DNA of 64,000 nt from a virus (Duplodnaviria; Caudoviricetes), in the IMG/VR virus record IMGVR_UViG_2859564202_000001; one strand, given 5' to 3'. The notes under the pieces were generated by a model that was not told the origin of the DNA, ran no database searches, and saw only the letters and a list, made by a program, of their open reading frames with translations. How positions within the stretch are numbered: the stretch's first letter is position 1; the number at the start of each line of letters is the position of its first letter. Shown here piece by piece: positions 29,483 to 60,260 of this stretch. Made by a program: the position numbers and the translations under genes.

Positions 29483-30322
29483 TTATGAACTCAAGGAAGA
29501 CCCAAAGAAAGGTACGCTATCGTCCTGGACCGACTTATCTGTCACTTCGAACAAGTAATGCACCTCCGAATACGTGCCATCTGGATAAATTAATTCTGCA
29601 GCAAACCACATTTGCCCAGTACGATCTTCCGGTGCTGTGAAGGTAAGCTCACCGGTCTTCTCATCAATGACAATAGTTGCCCCCATGAGTTCCGCATCTT
29701 CAACTGACCCATAACGATCGCGAACCACCTTAGCTCCCTGCGGAACCCCGCCAATCGCTCCATCCCCAGCAATGACCGTCATCGGAACTTTAATACTCTG
29801 ACCATTACGAACCCGTTGAGAATCTATGCTCTGAACACTGTAGTAAAAACTATCTGATACCTCGACTACTGAATGAGGTGTCACTATGTCAATAGAACTA
29901 TCAGGGTAGACCACTCTTACAGTTACTCGATCTATATAAGATCGCGTCACTTCCCCAGGGTTGTAACTAATAGTTCCGGCGCCTCCAAAAGTATGCCGGA
30001 TCACTCCTGTCTGTGAATCCAGCCGGGAGGTGACTACGCCATCGCTAACGGCGACTGCAAATGTGTCACTGTCAAGGACGAACCGAGTCCCCTCTGGTAA
30101 TTCCGCAAAGTTTTCAACGGTCTGTGAGACCGAATTAGGCAAACCTGCATCATTATTTATCGAGCCGAGACGCGTTTCTAACGACTCGTAATCCGGCTCG
30201 TAAAGAGCCGCCATGGGTACATTTTCCTGTGCAATTGCAACACTCGCGCCATTAACCGTTGTCCCAAATACTAACGAACATGACAGAATGGCAGTAACCA
30301 AAGTGCGTGACTGTACCAACAT
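29483..30322 (-). CDS. Secreted YPDG/Rib-like domain protein (paralog A)
   Basis: Signal peptide, two V.YPD[GS] Rib-like repeats, C-terminal GSSLSS. Confidence 0.75.
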   Translation of the reverse strand: MLVQSRTLVTAILSCSLVFGTTVNGASVAIAQENVPMAALYEPDYESLETRLGSINNDAGLPNSVSQTVENFAELPEGTRFVLDSDTFAVAVSDGVVTSRLDSQTGVIRHTFGGAGTISYNPGEVTRSYIDRVTVRVVYPDSSIDIVTPHSVVEVSDSFYYSVQSIDSQRVRNGQSIKVPMTVIAGDGAIGGVPQGAKVVRDRYGSVEDAELMGATIVIDEKTGELTFTAPEDRTGQMWFAAELIYPDGTYSEVHYLFEVTDKSVQDDSVPFFGSSLSS

Positions 30323-34491: not shown

Positions 34492-35041
34492 CTACCGCTT
34501 CGCCAGGTGTTTCTTCTCCACCGCAGCAAGACCTTCTTCCACAGTCTGCGGACCCTTCTTCGCAGCTAACTCTTTCGCCTCTACTGCAGCAAGCTCCTCT
34601 TTCTTGCGGGTAGATTTTTCTCCCAACCTTTCTTCCCGGTGCTCTGCCCGCGCCTGCATCGCCACCACATCCAAATCAGCAGTACCTGTGGTCACAGTGC
34701 CACCGCCGTAATGACTGTCTCGTTTAAAACGCTTCTTACCACGTTGTGCTTCTGTTGCTCGGCGTTTCTTCATATACGGATTCACACCGAGGGCAAGATT
34801 CGTTTCAAAAACTACGTTGGTAGCACCGCGGCGAAGATAACTTGCACCGGAATTATGCGTGGTTACAAGACGTGCCAAATCCATGGGAATCGTGCTGTTC
34901 AGTAGCTGTTGGTACACACCGACCGCGTCAGCATCCATAGGGCCAAGAATGGTGTACGACGCACGCGGAAACATATTAAAACCATCTGTATTAAGCATCC
35001 CATCGGCAGATCCGTACAGATAAGCCACTCGCCCACCGCGT
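34492..35041 (-). pseudogene. Duplicated 3' fragment of the VirB4-like gene
   Basis: Protein and DNA match the C-terminal ~180 aa of 46278-48710 (RGGRVAYLY...LAKR). Similarity stops abruptly near 35041. Confidence 0.9.
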
Positions 35042-37322: not shown

Positions 37323-38215
37323 TCCGCTTCCGATTCGTTGATGACGCTCGAAAGACCTACTCGGTTAAGCGGATATGTGACGTGTTGAAGCTCAATCGTT
37401 CCTCATATTACAAATGGAAAAGCACCGCCTTCACGCGTGAAAAACGCCTGCTCAGCGACGCTATTCTTGGGGTCCAGGTCAAGACTGTATTCACCACTCA
37501 CAGTGGCTGTTATGGGGCCAAACGAATCGCGGCTGAACTCAAAGACCAGATCGGCCATGACCTTGCGAACCACAAGCGGGTTGCCCGGATCATGCGATCG
37601 TTGAAGCTGTTCGGATACACAAAGAAACGCAAGGTCACCACCACCGTGCCGGACAAAACCAAGACAGTGTTCCCTGACCTTGTCGGCCGGAAGTTCACCG
37701 CTGACAAGCCGAACCAGCTCTATGTCGGGGATATCACCTATCTGCCAATTCAGGATGGGTCGAATATGTACCTGGCCACGGTCATTGACTGTTACTCCCG
37801 CAGGTTGGTGGGCTTTTCTATCGCAGATCACATGCGCACGAGCTTGGTCCAGGACGCGCTGCTCATGGCTAAAGACCAGCGTGGAAACCTCAAAGGTGCG
37901 ATTTTTCACTCCGACCACGGCAGCGTTTACACGTCTCATGCGTTTCAGGAGACGTGTAAGAAACTAGGGATCAGGCAGTCGATGGGATCAATTGGCACCA
38001 GTGCTGACAACGCTTTGGCGGAGTCTTTCAATGCCGCGATGAAGCGGGAAGTCCTGCAGGATTCCAAGACCTTTGAAAATCAATTGTGCTGTCGCCGGGA
38101 CGTCTTCCGCTGGTGTACCCGTTACAACACGGTTCGCCGGCATTCCTGGTGTAGATATCTGGCTCCGGTCGTGTTTGAGGAGCGCGGTCCTGCTATCCTG
38201 AGATCTGCTTCCTGA
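37319..38215 (+). CDS. tnpB: IS3 transposase OrfB (DDE integrase core)
   Basis: GDITY, HSDHGS, DNALAESF motifs. GTGA overlap with orfA. Confidence 0.95.
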   Translation: MIRFRFVDDARKTYSVKRICDVLKLNRSSYYKWKSTAFTREKRLLSDAILGVQVKTVFTTHSGCYGAKRIAAELKDQIGHDLANHKRVARIMRSLKLFGYTKKRKVTTTVPDKTKTVFPDLVGRKFTADKPNQLYVGDITYLPIQDGSNMYLATVIDCYSRRLVGFSIADHMRTSLVQDALLMAKDQRGNLKGAIFHSDHGSVYTSHAFQETCKKLGIRQSMGSIGTSADNALAESFNAAMKREVLQDSKTFENQLCCRRDVFRWCTRYNTVRRHSWCRYLAPVVFEERGPAILRSAS

Positions 38216-41864: not shown

Positions 41865-42695
41865 TCAAGAACTCAGAGACGATCCGGCAGGACGAATGAC
41901 ATCCACAGGTTCAGGCTGATCCGTCACCTCGATCACATATTGAACCTCTGAGTCCGAACCATCCGGGAAAGTCACTTCTGTACGAAACCACAGTTGACCG
42001 GTTCGATCATCAGGCGCCGTGAAGGTGAGATCGCCAGTCTTCTCATCTATGAGAATGATTGCACCCATCAACTCCGCATTCTCAATTGAGCCGTAACGAT
42101 CTCGGACCACCTTCGATCCCTGTGGGACCCCACCAACCGCTCCTGTACCACCATCCGTCACCCTCAATGGGATCTTGACAGTCTGACCATTGCGGACTTT
42201 AGGATAACCCGTGCTTTCAATGCCGTAGTAAATACTGTCAGCCACATAAACCACTGAATGGGGTGTCACTCTATCAAATGACCCATCAGGGTAGACCACC
42301 TTGACAGTCACTCGATCTGTATAAGATCGTTTCATTTCACCAGGGGTGTAGCTGATCCCCGAAGCCCCAAGAGTATGTCGAATCTCCCCTGTATTTGGGT
42401 CCAATCGAGAAGCGAGCAGACCATCATCAATAATAATTGAAAACGAATCACCCTCAAGTAAAAATCGAGTCTCCTCTGGTAATTCAGCAAGGTTTTCAAC
42501 AGACTGTTCAACCGACTTGGGAAAGACTCCACTAGAACCGAGACGCGTTTCTAAGGATTCATACCGTGGTTCATACTGAGCAGCCATAGACACATTTTCA
42601 TATGCAATCGCAACACCCGTGCCATTTACCGTTGCTCCGAACAACAGTGAACATGACAGTGCAGCGGTAACCAACGTGCGTGAACGTACCAACAT
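41865..42695 (-). CDS. Secreted YPDG/Rib-like domain protein (paralog B)
   Basis: Clear paralog of 29483-30322 including upstream DNA. C-terminal GSSLSS. Confidence 0.8.
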   Translation of the reverse strand: MLVRSRTLVTAALSCSLLFGATVNGTGVAIAYENVSMAAQYEPRYESLETRLGSSGVFPKSVEQSVENLAELPEETRFLLEGDSFSIIIDDGLLASRLDPNTGEIRHTLGASGISYTPGEMKRSYTDRVTVKVVYPDGSFDRVTPHSVVYVADSIYYGIESTGYPKVRNGQTVKIPLRVTDGGTGAVGGVPQGSKVVRDRYGSIENAELMGAIILIDEKTGDLTFTAPDDRTGQLWFRTEVTFPDGSDSEVQYVIEVTDQPEPVDVIRPAGSSLSS

Positions 42696-44326: not shown

Positions 44327-45910
44327 TTAACTACGGTCTATCGTACACGGAAGATAAGCGTAATTAGTTGCTGACTGACCGAAATACGGCTGACCTTCAT
44401 AAGTCACCTGAAAATATGAAGTACCCCAAAATAATGTATTCTTCTCCCCGCTGCAACCCGCCTCTAAATTGGTTTGCACAACAGAATTCCTATTACCGAA
44501 GAATTGTTGTGCATATGCTGCTTGAGCCCATCGTCCCCAATAGTCGTAGTAAATCCATCCATACCCCACTACATCTGAGACAGTTCCAGGAAGGTCGCAA
44601 TCCATCCTAGCCTTAAACCCAATCTTTGGAACCCTAATCCCGACTCCGTCACTCTTCGTTCTCACATGAATGTTAGCGGATTGCGATTGACATTGAATCG
44701 AATCTTTCTTGGCGTTAAGTGAATTCGCCTCTACACGAGAATTTGACAATCCGTTCTCAAAATACTCTATTGCTTCCTCAAGATTAGCAAAGGGTAAAAA
44801 CTCAATAAAAGCCTCAAGAGGATTGGGGTATAGGTTAGCTGCAAGTTCGCCTTTTTCGAATACCTGATTAGCCATGTTTTCTGTATACTTTTCTGGATCG
44901 CCGATAGGGTAACCGAATTCCCCACTCTCAGCTCCTTCTTCTCTCCAGATGCTGTATATATCCCCTAATATAGGGTGAGCTCCGTGTTGCGGATGCCAGT
45001 AGACAACTCCGTTCTGGAAAACAGAAAATCTGCCCACACCGTCAGCTGTCACAGCCTCATCCGCAATGGGAAAACCAAGGTCACTATCAGGACCACCCAA
45101 TTCAAGCCATTTATCCAAGATCAGCCCATTAATACTGGCCACCTGGAAACCGTCCAATACCGGACTGCGATACACTCGCCCACCTTGGAAAGTTTGCACC
45201 CACCCACTCAACTCACCATCAATCGGATTGGAACCATTCACAGGGACTTCACCACCAGTGGGATAACCCATCCACCCAGACTCCCACCCATTACGCTCCC
45301 ACACCTGCGCACTGTAATTATTAACAGCATGCGCACCAGTTGTCGGATGCCAATAAACAAACCCATTCATAAACCGCTGACGATACCCCTGACCATCAGG
45401 ATTTAACGTTTGGCCTTCACTCGGAAACAACATCCACCCAAACTGGGCACCCTGCTGAATATAGCGCTCTAAAATAGCACCACAAACCTGATGAGGTGAC
45501 GGCCAAAACGTCTGACACGCCGCAGCCGCAGCAAGGCCTCGCGTCTGTGGCTGAGATTGTTGCTGTGCAATAGCTATCTCTGCCTCATCAGCGGCTGCTT
45601 TATCAATAGTTACTGGCAGCTCCACCTTATCTGACCACATCTCACCCGGAATGAGCTCTTCATTAGGTGCGCCAGATTCTTGGGCTTGTCGGATAGCCTC
45701 GTGGATCTCGGCGATTTCTTGCTCAGTGTAGCCACCCACCCCGTCTACCACAGGTGGGGTATTCCCTTCGTGGTGGAACTGTTGAACATACGCATCTTGG
45801 TCTTCAGGTGTGACCACCTGACTAGCTTGCCCCTGTGCCACAGGTGCTATACCACCTGCAACAAGAAGTGCTGCAGCAATGACGCCTGCAGCCTTGGAAA
45901 ACAGTTTCAT
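44327..45910 (-). CDS. psp3: Secreted LGFP-repeat protein
   Basis: Signal peptide, LGFP/MGYP/FGYP repeats, F..G..YW motifs. Symbol is from memory of C. glutamicum annotation and unverified. Confidence 0.85.
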   Translation of the reverse strand: MKLFSKAAGVIAAALLVAGGIAPVAQGQASQVVTPEDQDAYVQQFHHEGNTPPVVDGVGGYTEQEIAEIHEAIRQAQESGAPNEELIPGEMWSDKVELPVTIDKAAADEAEIAIAQQQSQPQTRGLAAAAACQTFWPSPHQVCGAILERYIQQGAQFGWMLFPSEGQTLNPDGQGYRQRFMNGFVYWHPTTGAHAVNNYSAQVWERNGWESGWMGYPTGGEVPVNGSNPIDGELSGWVQTFQGGRVYRSPVLDGFQVASINGLILDKWLELGGPDSDLGFPIADEAVTADGVGRFSVFQNGVVYWHPQHGAHPILGDIYSIWREEGAESGEFGYPIGDPEKYTENMANQVFEKGELAANLYPNPLEAFIEFLPFANLEEAIEYFENGLSNSRVEANSLNAKKDSIQCQSQSANIHVRTKSDGVGIRVPKIGFKARMDCDLPGTVSDVVGYGWIYYDYWGRWAQAAYAQQFFGNRNSVVQTNLEAGCSGEKNTLFWGTSYFQVTYEGQPYFGQSATNYAYLPCTIDRS

Positions 45911-46277: not shown

Positions 46278-48710
46278 CTACCGCTTCGCCAGGCGCTTCT
46301 TCTCCACCTGTGCAAGCGCATCATCAAGATTCTTCGGCCCAGTTTTCAAAGCTAGTTCTTTCGCTTCTACATCATCAAGCTCCTTCATCTTGCGCGCAGA
46401 TTTCTCATCAAAGCGCTCTTCGCGGTGCTCGGCCTTCGCCTGAATTGCGACAACATCAAGATCCGCTGTGCCCACCATCGTCGTGCCACCACCGTAGTGC
46501 TTGTCTCGCTTGGATCGTCGCTGACCTCGCTGTGCTTCAATCTTGCGACGCTGCTCCATATAAGGATTAACGCCCAACGCAAGGTTGGTTTCAAACACCA
46601 CATTGGTAGATCCTCGGCGCAAATAGCTCGCACCAGAATTCTGCGTTGTCACCAACCGTGCCAAGTCCATCGGGATCTGACTATTAATCAGAGATTGATA
46701 AGTATCCACCGAGTCAACGTTCATCGGGCCCAAAATGGTGTACGCAGCACGTTGGAATTGATTGAAGCCAACAGTGCCAAGCATCGCGTCCATCGAGCTG
46801 TAGAGATACGCCACTCGCCCACCACGCTCAGCCATATATGCGAACTGATTAGCCAAATAATCCTGAACATCAACATCGACAATGCCATCAGCACCGTGAA
46901 TGATGACCACATCGCCTTGACCAAGCGTCTCCACAGCAAAACCAATCACGTTAACCAGCTGTGCCATCGCGACACCTGCGCCACGTCGCAGCACTCCAGA
47001 AAAATCATAGATCACGCGGCGTGCAGAGTTCACAGAATCAATGCCATCTGCCGTGTGCTGATTAAACAGATCGCCATGAGTATCGAGCAAATCCTTATAG
47101 GTCAGTCGCAGCACAGAAATGGCACGAAACATTTCAGGGTCTTTGGTTCCCTCATATTTCTGGCGCTCATATTCTTGATCCAAATAGGACACGAAGACAG
47201 AGAGCAACGGGATCTGCTCATGAGGCACACCAACAAGACGCAGCTTGTCACGGTTTTCACCGGCATTAAGAGCCCACATTTTCATATCCACATAAAAGGC
47301 TGTAATAATTTCTTTGAGCTTTCCGCGCAATAGCGCCAGCTCAGAGGTCTTATCGCCCAATGCCTGCTCGGTCATAAACACGATTTTGTCCATGTGTGTG
47401 GAATACAGCGACAGCTCATCTTCTTGCTTACCAAACAGCTCGAACATGTTGAGATCTCCGCTAGTCATATCCACATGAGCGGTCATGGATTCTAGCTTTG
47501 GTCCCATTTCATCGAGCTTGGCACCATTGAGCACCAGGTGCACTACGCGACGGTTATTCAGTAGCGCTGCCTGAGAAATCTTCGACCCCCACATGTCAAC
47601 GACACGGGGACGCTTAAGTAGTGGTGATGTATTAATCGAGCTATCTGCGCATACGACATGTCCCGACCAGCGATCCACATCAAAAAGCACAGCGGAGTTG
47701 TTGACATCGCCACGCATGACACCGACGTATTCGCCAGCAACATCGTTAAGACCATTGGTGACCAAAGAATAAGAACCGGCAAACTCAGTCGAGGTGAAGT
47801 GGAATCCTTTACCTCGCTTTTTGCTATTTTTGCCAAAAATCTGTGACAGTTCTTGACGTTGCTCACCGTGGTGTGCAGCAATATCCATTCGCGATAAGTG
47901 CTCGATAAAACTGCGTCGAATTTTCTCAACAGTCGAATCCAAGATCTCAAGGTTTGGTCCACGCAGCAGCAGACGGTTGTGCACAGTCAAATATGATGCA
48001 CCATCATCAAGCTCGGCGATCACCTCATCAAGATCAAGTCCACGCTTAACAGTCTTGCGGCGGTTGGACTTAGTGGAAGAATCAGCCAAGTCTGATTCTT
48101 CTGTCTTAGCTAGTCGGTCAGTATTTTTCAGATTGTCATCAATCCATGACTGCTTCATCCGCTCCACTTGCTCAAAAAGCACAGCTGAGACACCCTCAGG
48201 CAGATTGCGTGGAATGCGGTTGACGCCCCAGAAAGCACCGAATTCATCCTTGGCATCCTCATTGTGGAAAAACGACAAAATAGTGCCGATTTCATCATCC
48301 ACCTCAAAATAATCCGAGTGGAAAACATAGTGCTCCCTCGGCTTAATCACCATGAGGTGACCGTGATTTTCCATGGTGCCCAGCGCTGCCTGAGCGTCCT
48401 TTTTCTGCTGACGAGTCATCGTCTCGTCATCGAGCTCATCACTAATTTCTTCCACGTCATGCGCATCGGTATCGGTGGCACGATCATCAAATTCACCAAA
48501 ACCAAATGATCCACTCAGTGTGCGCGCGGTGCGCGCAGGTACAGGTGGGATCGGGTCTGATTCGGAGGTGCGACCAATGATGCGAGCTCCTAACGAAGGT
48601 GCTGGGAGCGGTGCTTCTACAGCAGTGGTAGTGGTTTCTTCAGCCTCCGTAGTAAGTGATGCAGCAGGTTCTTGTGCCCGTTTGTTCTTGAGCTTGTTAA
48701 AAAGTTTCAT
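46278..48710 (-). CDS. VirB4/TcpF-like protein with degenerate Walker motifs
   Basis: 810 aa with VirB4-like architecture (G.YVG...VLFD, NMFE, IYDFS), directly after a TcpE-like gene. No GxxxxGK[ST] visible. Confidence 0.6.
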   Translation of the reverse strand: MKLFNKLKNKRAQEPAASLTTEAEETTTTAVEAPLPAPSLGARIIGRTSESDPIPPVPARTARTLSGSFGFGEFDDRATDTDAHDVEEISDELDDETMTRQQKKDAQAALGTMENHGHLMVIKPREHYVFHSDYFEVDDEIGTILSFFHNEDAKDEFGAFWGVNRIPRNLPEGVSAVLFEQVERMKQSWIDDNLKNTDRLAKTEESDLADSSTKSNRRKTVKRGLDLDEVIAELDDGASYLTVHNRLLLRGPNLEILDSTVEKIRRSFIEHLSRMDIAAHHGEQRQELSQIFGKNSKKRGKGFHFTSTEFAGSYSLVTNGLNDVAGEYVGVMRGDVNNSAVLFDVDRWSGHVVCADSSINTSPLLKRPRVVDMWGSKISQAALLNNRRVVHLVLNGAKLDEMGPKLESMTAHVDMTSGDLNMFELFGKQEDELSLYSTHMDKIVFMTEQALGDKTSELALLRGKLKEIITAFYVDMKMWALNAGENRDKLRLVGVPHEQIPLLSVFVSYLDQEYERQKYEGTKDPEMFRAISVLRLTYKDLLDTHGDLFNQHTADGIDSVNSARRVIYDFSGVLRRGAGVAMAQLVNVIGFAVETLGQGDVVIIHGADGIVDVDVQDYLANQFAYMAERGGRVAYLYSSMDAMLGTVGFNQFQRAAYTILGPMNVDSVDTYQSLINSQIPMDLARLVTTQNSGASYLRRGSTNVVFETNLALGVNPYMEQRRKIEAQRGQRRSKRDKHYGGGTTMVGTADLDVVAIQAKAEHREERFDEKSARKMKELDDVEAKELALKTGPKNLDDALAQVEKKRLAKR

Positions 48711-49802: not shown

Positions 49803-52082
49803 TTAATCGCGTGGTGCGAGCTGGAAGCCGACGAACGAATTACCGTTGTACTCGCCGCGCTGCAGCGATCCCCGAGCGGTGTACGGCTTCTTGGCCTTCG
49901 ACATGGCATCAAAAGCAATCTCGCGGCCCTCAAGCAGATCGGCGATCTCCTTGTCGGTGAACTTGTGACCACCCCATACGCGCTTGAAGCGAATCTTTTC
50001 ACCCTCAACCTTCCACACACCCACCGCGTACACAGCTGGGTCTGCAGAGGCAATGCGATCAACCTGCCCCTTAAACCCAAAGAACTTAATGGTCTTGCCG
50101 TCTTTGTTAAAGCTTTGATGCGCCAGCTTGCCGGTGACTGTCGTGATCTGTCCACCAATCATGGCATCGGTAATGGTGAGCTCCTCACCGCGCAGCAACG
50201 CCTCGCATTCTGCATCGCTAAATTCATGCCCGCAGTAGACCTTCTTAAAGCTCACCTGCTCACCGTTCCAGGTGCCGGAGTGCTTGACAGAAGGGGTAAA
50301 AGTAGTAGTCATGAGTTTCTTTCCTAGTTCTTGGGGGATGTTTTTTGCGTTACGGGTCATGGTCGCAATATCTTCTTCGACCCACTGTTTAACTGGTTCC
50401 AGTGCCTGCTCTGCAGTCTTTTCACCAGCAGCAACCGCTGCCATATCGGCATAAACGCGCTCGGTAAGTTTGAGGTCGCCAATGTGGGTGCCAGGAAGCA
50501 GCAGATAATTCAGTTGCCCTGCGTCAGTCATAGTGACTTTGCCACGCGTTTCTTTGAGCAATGCTGACTTGCCGGCTGTGACCTCGGCATAGGTGCTCGT
50601 TCGTGTCGCACCGGTACCGACATCATGCTTATCGAGCTGTTTCATCAACCACGTCATTGACGGATGCGGTGGTCGCTGCGGAAAACCCTCAAACACTTCT
50701 GGCTCAGCACGAGTACCAATCCCCTGCTGTGCTGCATCACTGCCGGCAGCATCATCATCAGCCTCAGCGTCTACGTCGAAAATACCTTTCCAACCCAAGG
50801 ACTTTGGCACATTTGCTGTACCGAGAAACGCTGGGTAATCCACGACGCGGCCTTTTTGGTGCTCATAGAGGTAATCCTCTGCCAGCATCGTGAGATAGCT
50901 CTTAGCGAGCACTTCATAAATGCGCTGTCCGAGCACACCGTAGGTGGTTTTCACCGCTGCAATACTGGTCGGCACATTCAAACCCGGACGGTTGGCGCCG
51001 TGTGCACCCTTGGGCTTAACATGCGTGGACCGTGGCTGTCGGTGCGTAAGGTCAGCCGGGTTCACACCAACCAGGCCGGCGATCTTATCGACCAACGGCG
51101 CTAGTTCCTTAAACTGCTCAGGGGTAATCGTCTTATCCTCGGTACGCGGATAAGACACGACCTGCGCCTCGTACATCTGCTGATAAGTCTTAAGCACGTT
51201 CTTTGCGCTAAAGCCCTCTTTAGACAGCAGGGCCGACAGGCTCGCCAGGTCAAGTAGACGTGGTGGCGCGGTCTTTTTCATGCTCTTCTCATAGCATTCG
51301 ACCGCACTAGCCTTATAAAGCTGTGGTACCTCGTCGCAAGTCTTATAACGCGGTTCCTCGGGGTTGACGTAACTTACACCGTGATCATCAATGAAGCGGT
51401 TTTGATAAAAAGGAATCTTTTTATAATCGTTGTACGCATCTAAGCCCTGCCCCACAATCGCAACCATGGCAGATTTCAGGCGACCATTGCGCAACACTGC
51501 ACGCCGACCAGTGGTCTCTAGCACTTTGGTGGCACCGCGAGTCCACTGCATCGACAGCAAATCAAAGCGTGATCGGAATTCCGCCTTAAGATAATTGGGC
51601 TCGTCATGCATGGAGGTCACATCGCGGCGGTTGATAAACGCCTGCTGAATCGAGGCCGGCGCCTCATCAACAAATTCCATACGCTGAATCTTCTTGGTGT
51701 CTAACCCCAGCTCAGCGATAATCTCCCACGCCAACAGATCACCTTCGCCCGTGGGATCAATATCTGATCCGATCACAATGGTGGTGCAGCTGCTCAAGGT
51801 TTTCTTAATGCGTGCAATCGTGTTAGCTGCACCGTGCTTTTGCTCGCGTGACCACAAAAACTGCGTCTCATCCCACGGCAGCTTAGCCAGATCCCAGTAG
51901 CCGCCGATCTTATCGGCATAGCTTGGTGGCACCATCTCTTCTGGCTCGACAAATTCATAAAGGTGCCCGCTGGCTGCAGCAATAACGTACTTCTCGCCGT
52001 TATAAGTGCCAGAGGGTCCACCGAGGGCTTTCGCAAAGTTTTTCGCAGCCGAAGCTTTCTCCGTCAAAATTCCAATTGTCAA
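49803..52082 (-). CDS. Type IA DNA topoisomerase (TopB/TraE-like) with C-terminal repeats
   Basis: TEK, GHL, DIDPTGEG, SYPRTE (catalytic Tyr), AHGANRP, GTGATR. Two C-terminal G.W...FK....GH.F.D.E...LL.G repeats. Confidence 0.93.
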   Translation of the reverse strand: MTIGILTEKASAAKNFAKALGGPSGTYNGEKYVIAAASGHLYEFVEPEEMVPPSYADKIGGYWDLAKLPWDETQFLWSREQKHGAANTIARIKKTLSSCTTIVIGSDIDPTGEGDLLAWEIIAELGLDTKKIQRMEFVDEAPASIQQAFINRRDVTSMHDEPNYLKAEFRSRFDLLSMQWTRGATKVLETTGRRAVLRNGRLKSAMVAIVGQGLDAYNDYKKIPFYQNRFIDDHGVSYVNPEEPRYKTCDEVPQLYKASAVECYEKSMKKTAPPRLLDLASLSALLSKEGFSAKNVLKTYQQMYEAQVVSYPRTEDKTITPEQFKELAPLVDKIAGLVGVNPADLTHRQPRSTHVKPKGAHGANRPGLNVPTSIAAVKTTYGVLGQRIYEVLAKSYLTMLAEDYLYEHQKGRVVDYPAFLGTANVPKSLGWKGIFDVDAEADDDAAGSDAAQQGIGTRAEPEVFEGFPQRPPHPSMTWLMKQLDKHDVGTGATRTSTYAEVTAGKSALLKETRGKVTMTDAGQLNYLLLPGTHIGDLKLTERVYADMAAVAAGEKTAEQALEPVKQWVEEDIATMTRNAKNIPQELGKKLMTTTFTPSVKHSGTWNGEQVSFKKVYCGHEFSDAECEALLRGEELTITDAMIGGQITTVTGKLAHQSFNKDGKTIKFFGFKGQVDRIASADPAVYAVGVWKVEGEKIRFKRVWGGHKFTDKEIADLLEGREIAFDAMSKAKKPYTARGSLQRGEYNGNSFVGFQLAPRD

Positions 52083-52340
52083 AGTATTAACCTTTCTTAC
52101 TTTTTTAATACTTTAACACGGTCAAGAAACTAATTGAATTAGTTATTTGAGTTATTCAACCGACCCAGCAATGCGGGTCGCACAGCCAACTCACCACATG
52201 AGTCACCACGACCGAAGATTCTGCTGTCGCAGAACGGACTTATTTATAGGATTTACACATAACTAGCACCTCTGCCAGTGCCCACAGGGTGAAACCTCAC
52301 TCCCACACAGTGAGATAAACACTGAAAAACTGAACAAACG

Positions 52341-52949
52341 TGAATTTAATTCGAGCGTAAAGTTACGTATCGTTACACTCCGCTACACAGCGTTACAGCA
52401 CCAAAGATGCACGTCAAAGAGCCTTTTATTATATTAAAGTGAATTATTAAAATAATATAAGCGTTACATCAAAGTTACATAAAAAACACGTTGTGACCTG
52501 CATGAATGCAAAAGTGTAACGTTGTAACGATACTTTGCATGTTTTACGTATACGCGAGGGGTCGTAATAATCCTTTATGGCCTTTACCTATCATCACGAC
52601 TGTGCAGAGCCGTAGCGTTCACATGCTCGCTGATATGGCTGCAGGTAGTAAAACGACATAGCATCACGCTCATATGTGCCTTTAGGTACTTATGTGTCCT
52701 ATTTCACGTTTATGAGTTTTTACTTTTACTCTTCCGTCTATATTAAAGTTGCAAAAGTATCGTTACAACGTTACAAACCACAACATTAAGTTTATAGTTG
52801 CTGGTTAAACGGTACTTTTGGGTGTAACTTTAGCTTTTTCGTATCGTTACACCGTAGCGCTACAAAACTACCGTTACAGCAGCTCAGAGCATGTTTTTGG
52901 GGTGTAACGATACGTAACGTTTGTAACGTTACGTTCATAATTAAATTCA
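52341..52949. repeat. Quasi-palindromic array of GTTAC/GTAAC repeats, candidate origin
   Basis: Nested perfect IRs of 11, 17, 9 and 22 bp, all centred near 52640-52650. About 16 GTTAC copies. Confidence 0.85.
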
Positions 52950-53459
52950 TATATGTGACTGTTATGCGTACTTCCGTTCTATTTCAATAGCCAAGTAGTT
53001 ACTGTGTTGATAATTAAAAACTTATGGGAATTTTTAGTTTCTGCACAGCGTCACTTTTTCCGGTATGTTGGAAATCGTTGAAACTGTAGTCATACCGCTG
53101 TTATGAGAATGTCAAGAGTGCAATAACGGCCCCAGGGCATACACCAACCACTCCCCTACATCGTGCACAGCAGTATATTCTTGTGCGCTCAGAGGCAGCC
53201 TGCGACGCTTTTTTATGCCTCTGTGCTTGTTTAAGCGCCTCAACAATTGTGCACGAACACAAACCAGCACAGCACCACTCAAGCCGTTAAACAAGCGCGA
53301 AAATGCAGCAACACCCTCTTTATTTAGGCATGCAAAAAGCAGCTCGCTCCGGGGTACGAACACCCTCGAAACAAGCTGCTTTAATTCTTAGCGCTAATTA
53401 CTCAGCGCCACCATCACGGCAGTGGCAACGACCACCACTACCCCACACATCAACACCAT

Positions 53460-55547
53460 TTAGCGCGCACCTCCACCAGTGCTCGGCAGATCAAAGTTAC
53501 CGACCCGGTAATCCTGCTTGGAGACACACAACACCACAGCATTAAGAAAACGCTTCGGGTCAGGAACACGCACCTGCCACGCCTCATCTGTCCGGGTGTT
53601 CCACAAAATACCGTCCTTCATCCCAGACATGACCAAATACATTGCGAGCTGCAAAAACATCGGATGTGTCAACTCAGAGACGAATTTCAATTCATAAAGC
53701 ACACCCTTGTGCACCGCATCTGCGACACCTGCAAAAGACATTGGCGTGCGCACTACTTTGCTCTGTACTGCCTCGCCGTCAAGGATCAGTGGAATCTGAT
53801 TACGTGAATCAGCATTCAGCCTCGTACTCAGCCGTGAGACCAATGCCTTCTCCGCAGCAACCGGGATAGAGCTGCGCACCTGATCGACATACCGCATCTG
53901 CTCTGTGGACGCTGCTGTGACAATAAGGCAGTTACGCCATACGCTATTGTTTTTCTTCACCAAACGTTTAAGATTTTTCGCGAACTGACTCGGGTACGCC
54001 GATAGTGCTGTATGAACGTTGTAGTCCTTGAAGAACACTGCTTCCTGAAAGTTTCCCACTGTGGGTGAGAGATCAATAAGCCCGTCACTGCGATTGACCT
54101 CAATGGCTGCACCCTTGCCGTTGTCGAGACGCTTGACATCAAGCAGGTCAAAACATGCTTCGACATTCTCTGCGTACTTAAAATCAAAGGCTTCAGTCAC
54201 AGAGATCGGTCGCGCATATTCGCTCGGCGCCAACTCAGGTAGTTCTTTAAACACTGAAACAGGGATAAAACCCATCATGCGCTCAATCTGTGACTGAACC
54301 TCACCCACATCACCCTTACTTTCTTCTGCCGGCGTATGGGCATCTACCTCAGGTGCAACCTCAGTATTGTTGTCCACCACACCCACAGCGAGCCCTGCAG
54401 CCCAGTCCGCACCAGCCTCATACGCTGCTTGAAGAGAATCGCTACGTACAAAAACAACCTTGTTTTTACCGCGTGATGCTGCCACCAAAAACACATTGCG
54501 CATGACCACTGGATCAACATTGGGGTAACCAAGACGCATGTCCCAGAATTCTTCGTCATAGTCAAAGACCACGCAGGTATCGCGCTCTAGACCTTTACTG
54601 GAATCAAAGGTGGTAAACACCGCAGCGTCATTAGGGTGTGCAATCTGGGAATCACCATCGCGAATAGAGGCGAACACAGTTTTCTTATTGAACTTTGCCG
54701 GCGACTTCCTCTCCACGACATTAAGCGCATCTGACATCTGCCCATTGCGGCTACCCAAACACAACAGTTTGCTCGGCTCGGTGCTTTGGATCAACACCAC
54801 TGCCTCAGCGAAAGACCTATATTCAATCTGCTGTGCGGTATTGGCACCCACAATCGGTTTATTCCAGGCATCAGCCAAACCCGCTGCCATAGCCTCGCCA
54901 ATTCGAAACGACTGTGTAAACGGCGCGAAGACTGGATCTTCACACAATTGTGCTGCAAATTCTTGTGGATCTAACGTGGTGTCAGACCGGACTTTTTGTT
55001 CCAAATCACCCACCATGACAATCTGCATAAGCGGATTCACAGACTTAATGTTGCGCAGCAGTTCTGCATAGTCCTCATTGATGTCCTGGTACTCATCAAT
55101 AACCAGCAGGTCGTAACTGGGGAACGTGCGAGAAATGTGTTTGAAGTTCTTGTTAAACTCCCGAATCGACTCGCTAATACCACACTTGATGCCGGCCTTG
55201 AGTAGATGCGGATAGACAATGCCGTGATAGTTCTGCACCTTGGCGCCACGAACGCGCTGCTGTGCATCGACCTTCAACAACTTCGAATACGTCAAATACA
55301 GCACGTCATGGTCTGCACCCATGATCGAACACAGTCGTTGAATAGCGGTAGTTTTGCCCGAGCCTACGGTGGCATCAACAATGACATCTTTGCCAGCAAG
55401 TACATAATCAATCATGGCTTGCTGTTCGCTACTGAGTTGAACTTCTCCAGCACGTGGTCCCAGCTGTGGCTGCGGTGCCACCTGCGTGCTGGTGTTGTAC
55501 GCAGCGAGCATTGCTGCTGGATTACCCAACGACATCATATTTATCAT
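53460..55547 (-). CDS. SF1 (UvrD-like) helicase fused to C-terminal PD-(D/E)XK nuclease
   Basis: GSGKT, DEYQD, VGDLEQ, QSFR, SKGLE, VAASR, then GVAD...YELK...QLAMY. Confidence 0.85.
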   Translation of the reverse strand: MINMMSLGNPAAMLAAYNTSTQVAPQPQLGPRAGEVQLSSEQQAMIDYVLAGKDVIVDATVGSGKTTAIQRLCSIMGADHDVLYLTYSKLLKVDAQQRVRGAKVQNYHGIVYPHLLKAGIKCGISESIREFNKNFKHISRTFPSYDLLVIDEYQDINEDYAELLRNIKSVNPLMQIVMVGDLEQKVRSDTTLDPQEFAAQLCEDPVFAPFTQSFRIGEAMAAGLADAWNKPIVGANTAQQIEYRSFAEAVVLIQSTEPSKLLCLGSRNGQMSDALNVVERKSPAKFNKKTVFASIRDGDSQIAHPNDAAVFTTFDSSKGLERDTCVVFDYDEEFWDMRLGYPNVDPVVMRNVFLVAASRGKNKVVFVRSDSLQAAYEAGADWAAGLAVGVVDNNTEVAPEVDAHTPAEESKGDVGEVQSQIERMMGFIPVSVFKELPELAPSEYARPISVTEAFDFKYAENVEACFDLLDVKRLDNGKGAAIEVNRSDGLIDLSPTVGNFQEAVFFKDYNVHTALSAYPSQFAKNLKRLVKKNNSVWRNCLIVTAASTEQMRYVDQVRSSIPVAAEKALVSRLSTRLNADSRNQIPLILDGEAVQSKVVRTPMSFAGVADAVHKGVLYELKFVSELTHPMFLQLAMYLVMSGMKDGILWNTRTDEAWQVRVPDPKRFLNAVVLCVSKQDYRVGNFDLPSTGGGAR

Positions 55548-57627: not shown

Positions 57628-58374
57628 CTAATCAATTTTGAAAACGCGCACCATTAGGTAATCTCTCGATAAATAGTGTTTGGCCAGTAACAGACTCAAA
57701 AGCTTCTGCAAACTTGTTAAATCGTCAAAACAGCCGTTGACAAAGCTCTCCCACCACCGCAACTCTGCATCATGACTCCAATAAAATTCCTCAACCGGCA
57801 TTTGATAGGCATAACGTTCAGCTGTAGAAGGCCCCAGCATCATCCAACTCGTCGCTAATGCTGACTCCCACAATTCAAGATCTGTCTTTTCGAAAACCGA
57901 GCTAATAGGACTAGGCGAACCAGGACTCAGTGCACAATATCCCACAAGCTCACAACGTCCAGCCGACTGCGCCCACTCCTGATCAGGATCAACAATCAGC
58001 GCACGCCCAACCTTGACATCAATTCCGGTGTGCTGCACAAAGAACTCTAACCATTCCTGTAACTCAGATACAGTGAGCACATCCGGTAGATCAGCTACTA
58101 AGGATCTTATATTGGACGAGAAAAGTGACCACTTTTCAGCAACGATCGCTTGAAAAAGACACTGCCGAACAGCTCCGGCTATGCGCTGATTAGTAAATAC
58201 ATTACCTGGGAATGGTAGTGAACTACCGTCCCTTTTTGTCACTCTAGAAAATGCATTCCACTTTCCCATGATGTTGATGAGTAGAAAATCTAGACTTAGC
58301 GATGGCCCGATAAAGCGAAATCCGGAAGTTTTATAGCCTCTAGTGTAGATGCACAGTTGATGGGGTTCTGTCAT
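57628..58374 (-). CDS. Hypothetical protein translationally coupled to LGFP gene (immunity candidate)
   Basis: ATGA overlap with the upstream stop. Confidence 0.65.
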   Translation of the reverse strand: MTEPHQLCIYTRGYKTSGFRFIGPSLSLDFLLINIMGKWNAFSRVTKRDGSSLPFPGNVFTNQRIAGAVRQCLFQAIVAEKWSLFSSNIRSLVADLPDVLTVSELQEWLEFFVQHTGIDVKVGRALIVDPDQEWAQSAGRCELVGYCALSPGSPSPISSVFEKTDLELWESALATSWMMLGPSTAERYAYQMPVEEFYWSHDAELRWWESFVNGCFDDLTSLQKLLSLLLAKHYLSRDYLMVRVFKID

Positions 58375-60260
58375 ATGCGAAGCTTATTATAAAGATTCAC
58401 ATGATCAGGACATTGGGAAATTTCAGGCTCGTGTTCGATTCCACCAGGTGGGGTTGAATTACACCATGCTGAAATTACCCCCTTGGGTCTGTTCGAATTT
58501 GCTCCAGTGAAAGTATGAGGATTGTAAATAATAGTCACCCATTGCGGAGCGTGCATTTCTTTACATCCTGAGTTCTTATTGAATGTATAAGTTCTGCAAT
58601 CTAGAAAGTACACCGTTTTCTCGAACTTGTAATAGCTGGTTCCTGGCGATGAGCCATAATCAATCACCGCTTTATCTACTACGGCCTCAGCCATAGCGTG
58701 GTTGGCGAAGTTGTGTTTGCAATAGTTTTTTAAATATCCCCAGCCTTCATTCCTGTAACGGTCATAATGCCCTTTTCTCACGACAAATCTGAACTCGGTG
58801 GGGAAACCTCGCGAACTATACTCTTTTTTGATCGGGCCACCATTCTTTTCAATGTTGTTTTCAGTTTTTCTCTGCTCATCTAAATCGGGAAGATTCTTGC
58901 AATCCACGTATTGTGCACGCTGGGAAAACAGGGTCATCTCTTGGCTCGATGAGGATGAGCCGCTACTTCCAATTGGGAGGAAATCCTCCAAACTTCTTTC
59001 TTCATCGTCAGGAATCCATGTCAGTGCATCACCTGAGCCTAAAACAACACCTCTGGTGAATTCTTGTTCGAGTGACTCATTTAATGATGTCAATGATGGT
59101 ATCGGCCACCCTAAAGGAGTATCGGTATTTTGGTATTGCAGCCACAGGGAGTAAACATCACCATACAGCTCTCTGGCGCCTAGGATTCCATTCCACGCAA
59201 TCACCCCGCGCTCCGCAAAATTCACCACATGGAATAGACCAGAAACCTCAGGTGTTTCATCTGCTTCAGGAAAACCTAAACGACCCGTCTCCCGACCCAA
59301 CGCATCCCACACCCGCTGCGTAGCCAAATACATAAACCGTGTCTGACGATCATTTCGCCACGAAATTGTTCCATTGGAGAAATTATTGTAAAAATACTCA
59401 GTACCGCTAGGTAGCTCATTAGTGATCGGGATGCCAATGGCATGATTCGAGCCGCCAAGTTCTTCGTAGCGCTGTTTAATATCGCCCCACACAGCACCGC
59501 CAGTCAATGGGTTGTAATAGTTGTCACCACCTTGAAAAGTCTGTCGCTGAGTAAGGGGATAGTTTGTATCCATCGGACCAGAGGTTGGGTACCCCAATGG
59601 CCCTGATTCCCAGTTCAAGGTCCCCCACTGCCTCAAACCGTCCAGGGTCACTGCATAAGCGCCTGTGTCTGGATGCCAATAGATGGCACCCCCAACAAAT
59701 TCACTTCTTTTGCCAACACCGTCGGGATTGGTCAACTCGTTTGACTTTGGTGGCCCAAGCCATGACAACTGACCTCCAACCTGCCGATAAGCGTCAAGAA
59801 TCCGGCCACAAACTGAGAAACCTGTTGGCCACATAGCCTCACACCCAGTTGCAGCCATCAATCGTGCGCCCTCATTAAGTCGCGCTTCCGCAACCTCCAC
59901 CTGATCAGCTTCGTCCTTGCTCACCCCCTCCGGTAACTCGATGACATCTGAGCGCATTTCCCCTGCAACGATGTCCCGCTTAGGTAGCGGAAGTTCCTCA
60001 ACATTGTCTTTACTATCGTTGACGTGCTCGTGATACTCAATGACTACTTCTGGATGTGCTGATTCGAAATCCTCAAGTTGTTCCTTAACAGTCGGAGCAT
60101 TCCTATTGGGAACATAGTCAACACCATCATCAGCAAACTGCTCATCACTGATTTCTTTTACAAGCTCAAATTGATCTTCCACTTGTGCTTGAGCTACCGG
60201 AGATGCAACCCCGATGGCCAGCAACATGACAGCAGAAACACCCACTAGTCTTCGTACCAA
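58371..60260 (-). CDS. psp1: Secreted LGFP-repeat protein with distinct C-terminal domain
   Basis: Signal peptide, LGPP/LGYP/LGFP/LGWP repeats, Ser linker, Cys-rich basic C-domain. Symbol is from memory and unverified. Confidence 0.85.
   Translation of the reverse strand: MVRRLVGVSAVMLLAIGVASPVAQAQVEDQFELVKEISDEQFADDGVDYVPNRNAPTVKEQLEDFESAHPEVVIEYHEHVNDSKDNVEELPLPKRDIVAGEMRSDVIELPEGVSKDEADQVEVAEARLNEGARLMAATGCEAMWPTGFSVCGRILDAYRQVGGQLSWLGPPKSNELTNPDGVGKRSEFVGGAIYWHPDTGAYAVTLDGLRQWGTLNWESGPLGYPTSGPMDTNYPLTQRQTFQGGDNYYNPLTGGAVWGDIKQRYEELGGSNHAIGIPITNELPSGTEYFYNNFSNGTISWRNDRQTRFMYLATQRVWDALGRETGRLGFPEADETPEVSGLFHVVNFAERGVIAWNGILGARELYGDVYSLWLQYQNTDTPLGWPIPSLTSLNESLEQEFTRGVVLGSGDALTWIPDDEERSLEDFLPIGSSGSSSSSQEMTLFSQRAQYVDCKNLPDLDEQRKTENNIEKNGGPIKKEYSSRGFPTEFRFVVRKGHYDRYRNEGWGYLKNYCKHNFANHAMAEAVVDKAVIDYGSSPGTSYYKFEKTVYFLDCRTYTFNKNSGCKEMHAPQWVTIIYNPHTFTGANSNRPKGVISAWCNSTPPGGIEHEPEISQCPDHVNLYNKLRI

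Follow-up and report, generated by a model that had tools for sequence, protein, structure and literature searches.

Introduction

A cluster of GTTAC repeats with nested dyad symmetry occupies the gap between a topoisomerase gene and a helicase gene in a 64-kb stretch of viral DNA (the whole stretch that was analysed, hereafter the window), and the question raised by this locus is what the cluster does for the element that carries it. The first-pass annotation had proposed a bidirectional replication origin with initiator boxes or, alternatively, an oriT or a centromere-like site. Our analysis favours the view that the element is one copy (copy A) of a two-copy, ~730-bp iteron origin module in a CGP3-type prophage of Corynebacterium glutamicum. 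CGP3 has been studied better than any other cryptic prophage of this industrial model bacterium.

Once induced, CGP3 replicates in situ and proceeds outward past both attachment sites, with amplification of some hundreds of kilobases of flanking chromosome, and the study that described this behaviour left the origin unmapped (PMC6173762). The size of the prophage is 187 kbp (PMC5137423), and its centromere-like site, alpS, is a TTAAnnG array located at the alpAC promoter and bound by AlpA (PMC4446434). A search of the literature retrieved no paper describing the CGP3 origin. With the analysis presented here, two exact candidate sites and a likely initiator are now named for CGP3 replication.

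Repeats and boxes of the window element

Analysis of the element confirmed the four inverted-repeat pairs that had been described at this locus, and the midpoints of the pairs, all within 52640-52651, indicate that their nesting is real. The outer pair consists of TGAATTTAATT at 52341-52351 and its complement at 52939-52949, and the second pair of GTTACGTATCGTTACAC at 52362 and its complement at 52902, which can be extended to 23 nt at 91% (52359-52381 / 52899-52921). The third pair is made of AAAGTTACA at 52471 and TGTAACTTT at 52823, and the innermost one is perfect over 22 nt (52515-52536 / 52754-52775). The direct repeat that had also been reported was found at 52363-52400 and 52837-52881.

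The estimate of some 16 boxes agreed with our count of 16 exact GTTAC sequences in 52362-52932, where 0.74 would be expected from the 82 occurrences in the other 63.4 kb of the window (Poisson P = 1.9e-16). When degenerate members are included, there are about 18 boxes per copy in 52361-52933, with the consensus CGTTACA (TGTAACG on the other strand). The element is the sole site in the 64-kb window where any 7-mer has at least 6 copies per 600 bp, and 9 of the 10 occurrences of the 11-mer GTATCGTTACA in the nearest genome (G001, 3.3 Mb) are located inside the module and its sister copy, which is described below.

The boxes are arranged in opposed sets (Table 1). The inner doublets at 52515/52523, on the minus strand, oppose those at 52761/52769, on the plus strand, and the outer arrays are opposed too: the left one has four boxes on the plus strand, the right one three on the minus strand. 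A box-free AT-rich block is placed between the left arrays and is therefore off-centre; the duplex stability of a 40-mer within it (-38.4 kcal/mol) is weaker than the cut-off for the weakest 0.1% of the window (-40.4). The GC content at the geometric centre is higher (40-57%), and falls to 25-33% only at 52680-52750. Each arm of the outer repeat contains the hexamer TAAATT, which, read outward, is a possible -10 element. As for the size of the element, the conserved unit turned out to be bigger than the previously suggested ~610 bp and covers about 52310-53043.

Table 1. Features of copy A and its flanking genes (positions in the 64-kb window)
Feature	Position	Strand	Remarks
Type IA topoisomerase gene (Toprim + Topoisom_bac)	49803..52082	-	flanking gene; start directed towards the module
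Whole conserved module, copy A	52310..53043		~730 bp; sharp homology limits
Outer inverted repeat, left arm (TGAATTTAATT)	52341..52351		invariant in 4/4 copies
Left outer array: AGTTACG, CGTTACA, CGCTACA, CGTTACA	52361..52397	+	four direct boxes, exact 10-bp spacing
Box-free AT-rich block; candidate DNA-unwinding element	52403..52461		GC 12% at 52420-52459; 19/20 columns invariant per block
Two direct boxes, CGTTACA and AGTTACA (52462, 52473)	52462..52479	+	11 bp apart
Inner left arm of the 22-nt inverted repeat	52515..52536	-	box doublet (52515, 52523), 8-bp spacing; boxes invariant in 4/4 copies
Central spacer, 217 bp	52537..52753		most variable part, few conserved islands; GC 40-57% in left and middle, 25-33% near 52680-52750
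Inner right arm of the 22-nt inverted repeat	52754..52775	+	mirror doublet (52761, 52769), 8-bp spacing
Reverse box 52823-52829, then direct repeat of the left outer array	52823..52881		plus-strand boxes at 52845, 52858, 52872
Right outer array, then right arm of the outer inverted repeat	52899..52949	-	three reverse boxes, 10- and 9-bp spacing, and one overlapping forward box (52903-52933)
AT-rich conserved extension past the palindrome	52950..53043		14-18/20 columns invariant per block, to the sharp homology end at ~53043
SF1 helicase gene (UvrD/AAA_19-type)	53460..55547	-	flanking gene; its 3' end faces the module

Two inverted copies of the module in two species

In G001, a genome consisting of one contig of 3,309,401 bp, the module of the window is located at 1955040. 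A sister copy (copy B) was found in the same genome at about 1835400; it is inverted with regard to copy A, ~120 kb away from it and 86% identical. Homology between the two copies begins near window position 52310 and stops sharply at ~53043, and the flanks are unrelated. If the integrase gene at G001:1985481-1985972 marks the right end of the prophage and the element is 187 kb long, the two copies would each be at a distance of roughly 30-35 kb from one end of the prophage.

The genus was surveyed for the module in 201 genomes and then in 321 genomes. A second Corynebacterium species (G127) also carries two inverted copies, 87 kb apart and 90% identical to copy A, with the flanks of each one orthologous to those of the matching copy in G001, and the module was not found in the other 319 species of the genus that were searched. 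Conservation in relatives, which had been put forward as a check on the functional reading, was observed in this second species: alignment of the four copies revealed that the box-bearing arms are nearly invariant and that the centre is the most variable part. Scans with exact 19-mers gave no match in genome contigs, a set from which near relatives may be absent, and a single chance match, in the tail-fibre gene of an unrelated viral contig; the plasmid and phage collections contained no match to the module.

Comparison of copies A and B of G001 showed a divergence of 5.9% at box positions versus 16.4% elsewhere (p = 0.001). When the A copies of the two species, which are orthologous, were compared, the values for boxes and non-box positions were 8.1% and 9.9%, respectively, a difference that is not significant (p = 0.63). 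The two G127 copies are ~6.6% diverged from each other, whereas each of them differs from its orthologue by about 10-13%. The greater likeness of the two G127 copies to each other than to their orthologues indicates concerted evolution, and points to gene conversion between the copies. Copy A keeps every box cluster, nearly all the boxes, the AT-rich block and both outer arrays; the box at 52913 has been lost from both G127 copies.

The possibility that the prophage is a fusion of two related elements was considered and rejected: besides an identical 178-aa ORF, the surroundings of copy A share no proteins with the 20 kb around copy B. This ORF (100% identity) is present at positions 37403-37939 of the window (minus strand) and, near copy B, at L004:25-561, and it may be an insertion-sequence gene.

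The helicase gene adjoining copy B

Copy B ends ~300 bp upstream of a gene, priP, whose product is a 632-aa protein with D5_N, DUF5906 (SF3 P-loop) and Pox_D5 domains. It is the sole D5/SF3 helicase gene in G001 and in G127, and it adjoins copy B in both genomes. Its distance from copy A is 117 kb, and copy A has no adjacent rep gene. Residues 185-531 of PriP align to PriRep5 of SaPI5 (PDB 7OLA) with an E value of 1.5e-56. The gene presumably corresponds to cg1959, which has been described as 'prophage primase' and at which the silencer CgpS has been reported to bind, among its potential targets (PMC5137423). In G127, the orthologue of priP (G127:C1:1982322-1984217, locus L060) shows one in-frame TAA inside a match of 93% identity, and the gene may be broken in this species, or may have a different end.

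The last 163 residues of PriP were modelled with a pLDDT of 82.7. A Foldseek search with this C-terminal model gave no significant match. On the other hand, the best matches obtained with VIA-align were all winged-helix domains (Cdt1, RFX, ORC/Cdc6 and cullin WHB), at weak Z values of 5-6, and the origin-binding domain of phage P4 (1KA8) was among the structural matches with a Z of 4.8. As judged from the model, these matches are suggestive only of a winged-helix fold for the C-terminal domain of PriP.

An ~800-bp AT-rich intergenic region with CTTTTAA/TTAAAAG-type repeats was observed about 8 kb from copy B (L004:1450-2300, corresponding to G001:C1:~1827450-1828300). It contains 11 copies of this type of 7-mer in 600 bp and fits the AlpA-binding consensus TTAAnnG. 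According to the gene numbering, the array is seemingly too near priP to be that of the alpAC promoter, and it may therefore be a second alpS-like array. No cluster of TTAAAAG/CTTTTAA is present in the 64-kb window.

Heptamer arrays beside PriP homologues

A search for related loci retrieved 48 of them, from Actinobacteria and Firmicutes, with homologues 33-57% identical to PriP, and 37 of these loci were analysed. In 25 of the 37, a heptamer cluster was found beside the helicase gene, with 8-16 copies of one lineage-specific heptamer within 600 bp, while shuffled loci gave a maximum of 4-6 copies. Array-bearing loci (within L014-L056) include those of Collinsella, Rothia, Microbacterium, Leucobacter and Lachnospiraceae; at no fewer than one array-less locus (L026), the contig end falls where the array would lie. 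The heptamers are mostly of the form TGnnACA (TGGAACA, TGAGACA, TGATACA, TGCCACA, TGCTACA, TGGTACA and TGACACA), and the remaining lineages use GGTGACA, GTGACAA, GTACACA or GACACAC. The arrays flank the helicase gene closely, on its upstream or its downstream side, and in many loci the position is downstream.

Thirteen arrays were mapped box by box and found to span 300-650 bp. Most of them contain doublets with boxes 7-9 bp apart, placed face-to-face across about 85-240 bp, and further boxes are found on both sides of the doublets. The Collinsella and Sporofaciens arrays, when read directly, showed AT-rich centres. The homologue arrays (8-16 heptamers, with facing doublets in most of those mapped) thus have the layout of the window module, and all of them adjoin the helicase gene; they differ from the module in that the box sequence varies by lineage and in that the array was single-copy in the two other complete genomes tested, which indicates that a second copy is not needed in general. 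A literature search found these arrays neither annotated nor described. Altogether, the sequences compared here indicate that lineage-specific, mostly TGnnACA heptamer arrays accompany the PriP-type helicase family across Actinobacteria and Firmicutes.

An association of box type with particular residues of the helicase C-terminal domain was also considered and rejected. Loci that share a box are closely related, which explains the near identity of their C-terminal domains, and Microbacterium and Collinsella share TGGAACA with no obvious similarity between their C-terminal domains, so that no recognition code is readable. At several homologue loci, a small gene is located between the array and the helicase gene; the translation of one of them (L043:3405-3625, Collinsella acetigenes) looks like an excisionase/AlpA-type helix-turn-helix protein. 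In G001, the interval from copy B to priP holds no such excisionase/AlpA-like small gene.

Gene context of copy A

The intergenic gap holding copy A measures 1.38 kb, and its description as gene-free proved correct, as no ORF conserved as a protein was found between the topoisomerase and SF1 helicase genes. Small genes in the centre of the module were considered, with a 51-aa frame on the plus strand and 52-68-aa frames on the minus strand open in copies, and were rejected; the plus-strand frame loses its start in copy B, and most of the differences between copies alter amino acids. RNAalifold detected no covariation support in the central region (term +0.12), in a weak test where the rows for the B copies covered only part of that region. 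The module gave a chance-level match only in Rfam, and a scan for promoter consensus sequences found no more sites in it than in shuffles. In copies A and B alike, the same end of the module faces a gene start located 230-300 bp away.

The topoisomerase gene next to copy A was evaluated, and rejected, as a partner of the array. Its sole homologue in 401 genomes of the order, a 54% identical protein in another genus, has an upstream region that is coding and array-free, and the topoisomerase is therefore not a conserved partner. The sole relaxase gene found in the window, of the MobL family, is located at 2-1843, 50 kb from copy A.

Three paralogue pairs were observed inside the window: 29483-30322 and 41865-42695, with 65% identity; 34492-35028 and 46278-48710, with 73% identity, the former being a 178-aa fragment of an 810-aa gene; and 44327-45910 and 58371-60260, with 33% identity. 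Read from their sequences, these pairs correspond to a partial internal duplication in this part of the island.

Proposed mechanism and alternative explanations

Copy B is most likely the rep-linked origin of the prophage, and copy A probably serves either as an additional origin or as an additional cis-acting site for the initiator. The proposal of a replication origin with initiator boxes gains support, on comparative grounds, from the presence of copy B beside a PriRep5-type helicase gene and from the arrays of the same architecture at the homologues. Lacking a rep gene nearby, copy A must rely on an initiator that acts in trans, and its full architecture, matched to that of copy B, leads us to rate a second, trans-served origin as the most likely reading. 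We infer that PriP binds to the GTTAC-type boxes and that copy A fires as an origin.

According to the mechanism that we propose, PriP would recognise the boxes through its C-terminal DNA-binding domain. By analogy with the origins of SaPIs and PICIs, hexamers of this helicase would form on the box clusters, which have opposite orientations. Since the clusters are phased at 8-11 bp, their boxes would share one face of the helix. Melting of a neighbouring AT-rich tract by the hexamers would follow, with 52403-52461 as the best candidate and possibly also 52680-52750, and bidirectional replication would be started. On the ~187-kb element, copy A would in this way most likely provide a further origin or, at the minimum, another cis-acting site for loading of the initiator. 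A further proposal, which we put forward as tentative and regard as somewhat doubtful, is that CGP3 is a dual-origin prophage, with two complete inverted copies that are homogenised by gene conversion and both fired in trans by one self-loading helicase. If this were true, the strong outward 'regional replication' that crosses both attachment sites would find an explanation in the dual origins.

Several observations count against the origin reading. The adjacent rep gene that defines SaPI-type replicons is missing at copy A, the clear AT-rich block is off-centre with a left and middle part of the 217-bp centre that is not low in GC, and the boxes are not significantly better kept than non-box positions between orthologous A copies. 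Besides, the winged-helix assignment is weak and was not accompanied by a significant Foldseek match, the type of box is not tied to C-terminal residues of the helicase, and two other complete genomes have a single array. The next explanation in likelihood, although we judge it unlikely, is that copy A binds the initiator helicase without firing and works as a control or helper site. Such a site could titrate PriP or 'handcuff' with the true origin at copy B, as do the iteron sets incA of P1 and incC of F, or else be needed as a remote cis element, in the manner of crr in phage P4. The absence of an adjacent rep gene, the concerted evolution of two copies that keep the same boxes and the precedent of ori and crr in the same primase-helicase class, together with the appearance of the P4 domain among the structural matches, would all be in line with a non-firing site. 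However, copy A has kept more than its boxes: the AT-rich block and both outer arrays are present as well, so that its architecture is complete, and the 120-kb separation far exceeds known distances for handcuffing or crr. A more passive role, that of a functionless leftover or a mobile, non-autonomous MITE-like repeat matched to copy B by gene conversion only, has a small chance of being correct. The two sharp-ended copies with terminal inverted repeats, their homogenisation within the genome and neighbourhoods that otherwise share only the identical 178-aa ORF would fit it. Homology does not stop, however, at the outer inverted repeats but continues for about 30 bp and 95 bp beyond them, and they are therefore not the termini of an element; furthermore, each genome has exactly two copies, which occupy orthologous sites in two species and are found in none of the other 319 searched, and copy A retains every box cluster, the single box lost in the G127 copies being the exception.

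A regulatory module, in which the boxes would be transcription-factor operators with outward promoters for priP at copy B and for the topoisomerase at copy A, appears equally improbable. The position of a gene start 230-300 bp from the same end of both copies, the possible outward -10 hexamer TAAATT in the outer inverted repeat and the report of CgpS at cg1959 (PMC5137423) speak for it. On the contrary, about 18 sites over 570 bp are far above the needs of an operator, the promoter scan was no richer than shuffles, the topoisomerase homologue in another genus lacks such an array, and in many homologue loci the array is downstream of the helicase gene and cannot be the promoter of that gene. 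Promoters may nevertheless exist inside an origin, and the regulatory reading is in this sense partly compatible with the origin reading. The explanation to which we give the least credit, and which we consider very improbable, is that the module is an oriT or a centromere-like partition site of an ICE-like part of the island. A MobL-family relaxase is encoded in the window and repeat arrays are typical of centromeres; yet the relaxase gene is 50 kb away, which makes an oriT unlikely, two inverted copies are not expected for an oriT, and copy B adjoins a replicative helicase gene instead of transfer genes. The centromere-like site of CGP3, alpS, differs from the module in motif and place (PMC4446434). 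Neither of the two alternatives raised in the first-pass annotation was therefore borne out.

Comparison with known origins

The origin reading of the module can be compared with the replicons of SaPI elements, whose Reps are self-loading SF3 helicases with a C-terminal winged helix that binds iterons of 5-7 nt (PMC9371898; bioRxiv 10.64898/2026.10.17.759575). These iterons are oppositely oriented around an AT-rich region, with at least two per side (PMC9371898), and that of SaPI5 is TGCAAC(C) (PMC9371898; bioRxiv 10.64898/2026.10.17.759575), a sequence whose core differs by one base from the TGTAAC(G) of the window. SaPI/PICI origins (SaPI1, SaPIbov1 and SaPI5, from Staphylococcus aureus) and the window module have in common short, opposed iterons about one helical turn apart and an AT-rich tract, which in the module lies off-centre. 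The SF3 self-loading helicase initiator is a further likeness, with PriRep5 in SaPI5 and its homologue PriP in CGP3.

The differences affect both the module and its setting. The window module covers about 570-730 bp versus about 300 bp in SaPI origins, and its centre, the 217 bp that separate the inner doublets, is long and not strongly AT-rich. In contrast to the downstream position of SaPI origins, copy B is located upstream of its rep gene; copy A has no rep gene within 117 kb whereas copy B adjoins priP (~300 bp), and there are two inverted origin copies per element. The host element is here a ~187-kb cryptic prophage, as compared with a ~15-kb satellite for SaPI. The kind of origin is not new, but the present member, found in an actinobacterial prophage of ~187 kb, is, and so are the heptamer arrays of the helicase family. 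The SaPI-type design of a self-loading helicase plus an iteron origin is thereby extended to a very large actinobacterial element. The orphan, inverted and homogenised second copy is unusual, and it is the one feature able to teach something new on the use of such origins.

For the presence of two loci, a parallel is found in satellite phage P4. The alpha protein of P4 belongs to the same D5-like primase-helicase class and uses ori together with a distant site, crr, that has the same iterons; these type I iterons are bound by the C-terminal winged-helix domain of alpha (1KA8). P4 ori and crr thus provide a precedent for two separate loci with the same iterons on one replicon, one of them away from the origin proper. 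While crr consists of direct repeats and is located about 4.5 kb from ori, the two copies described here are 120 kb apart and each one is a full copy of the origin. If the dual-origin proposal were true, CGP3 would offer a parallel, among bacteria, to herpesvirus and chloroplast genomes, whose inverted repeats contain paired origins.
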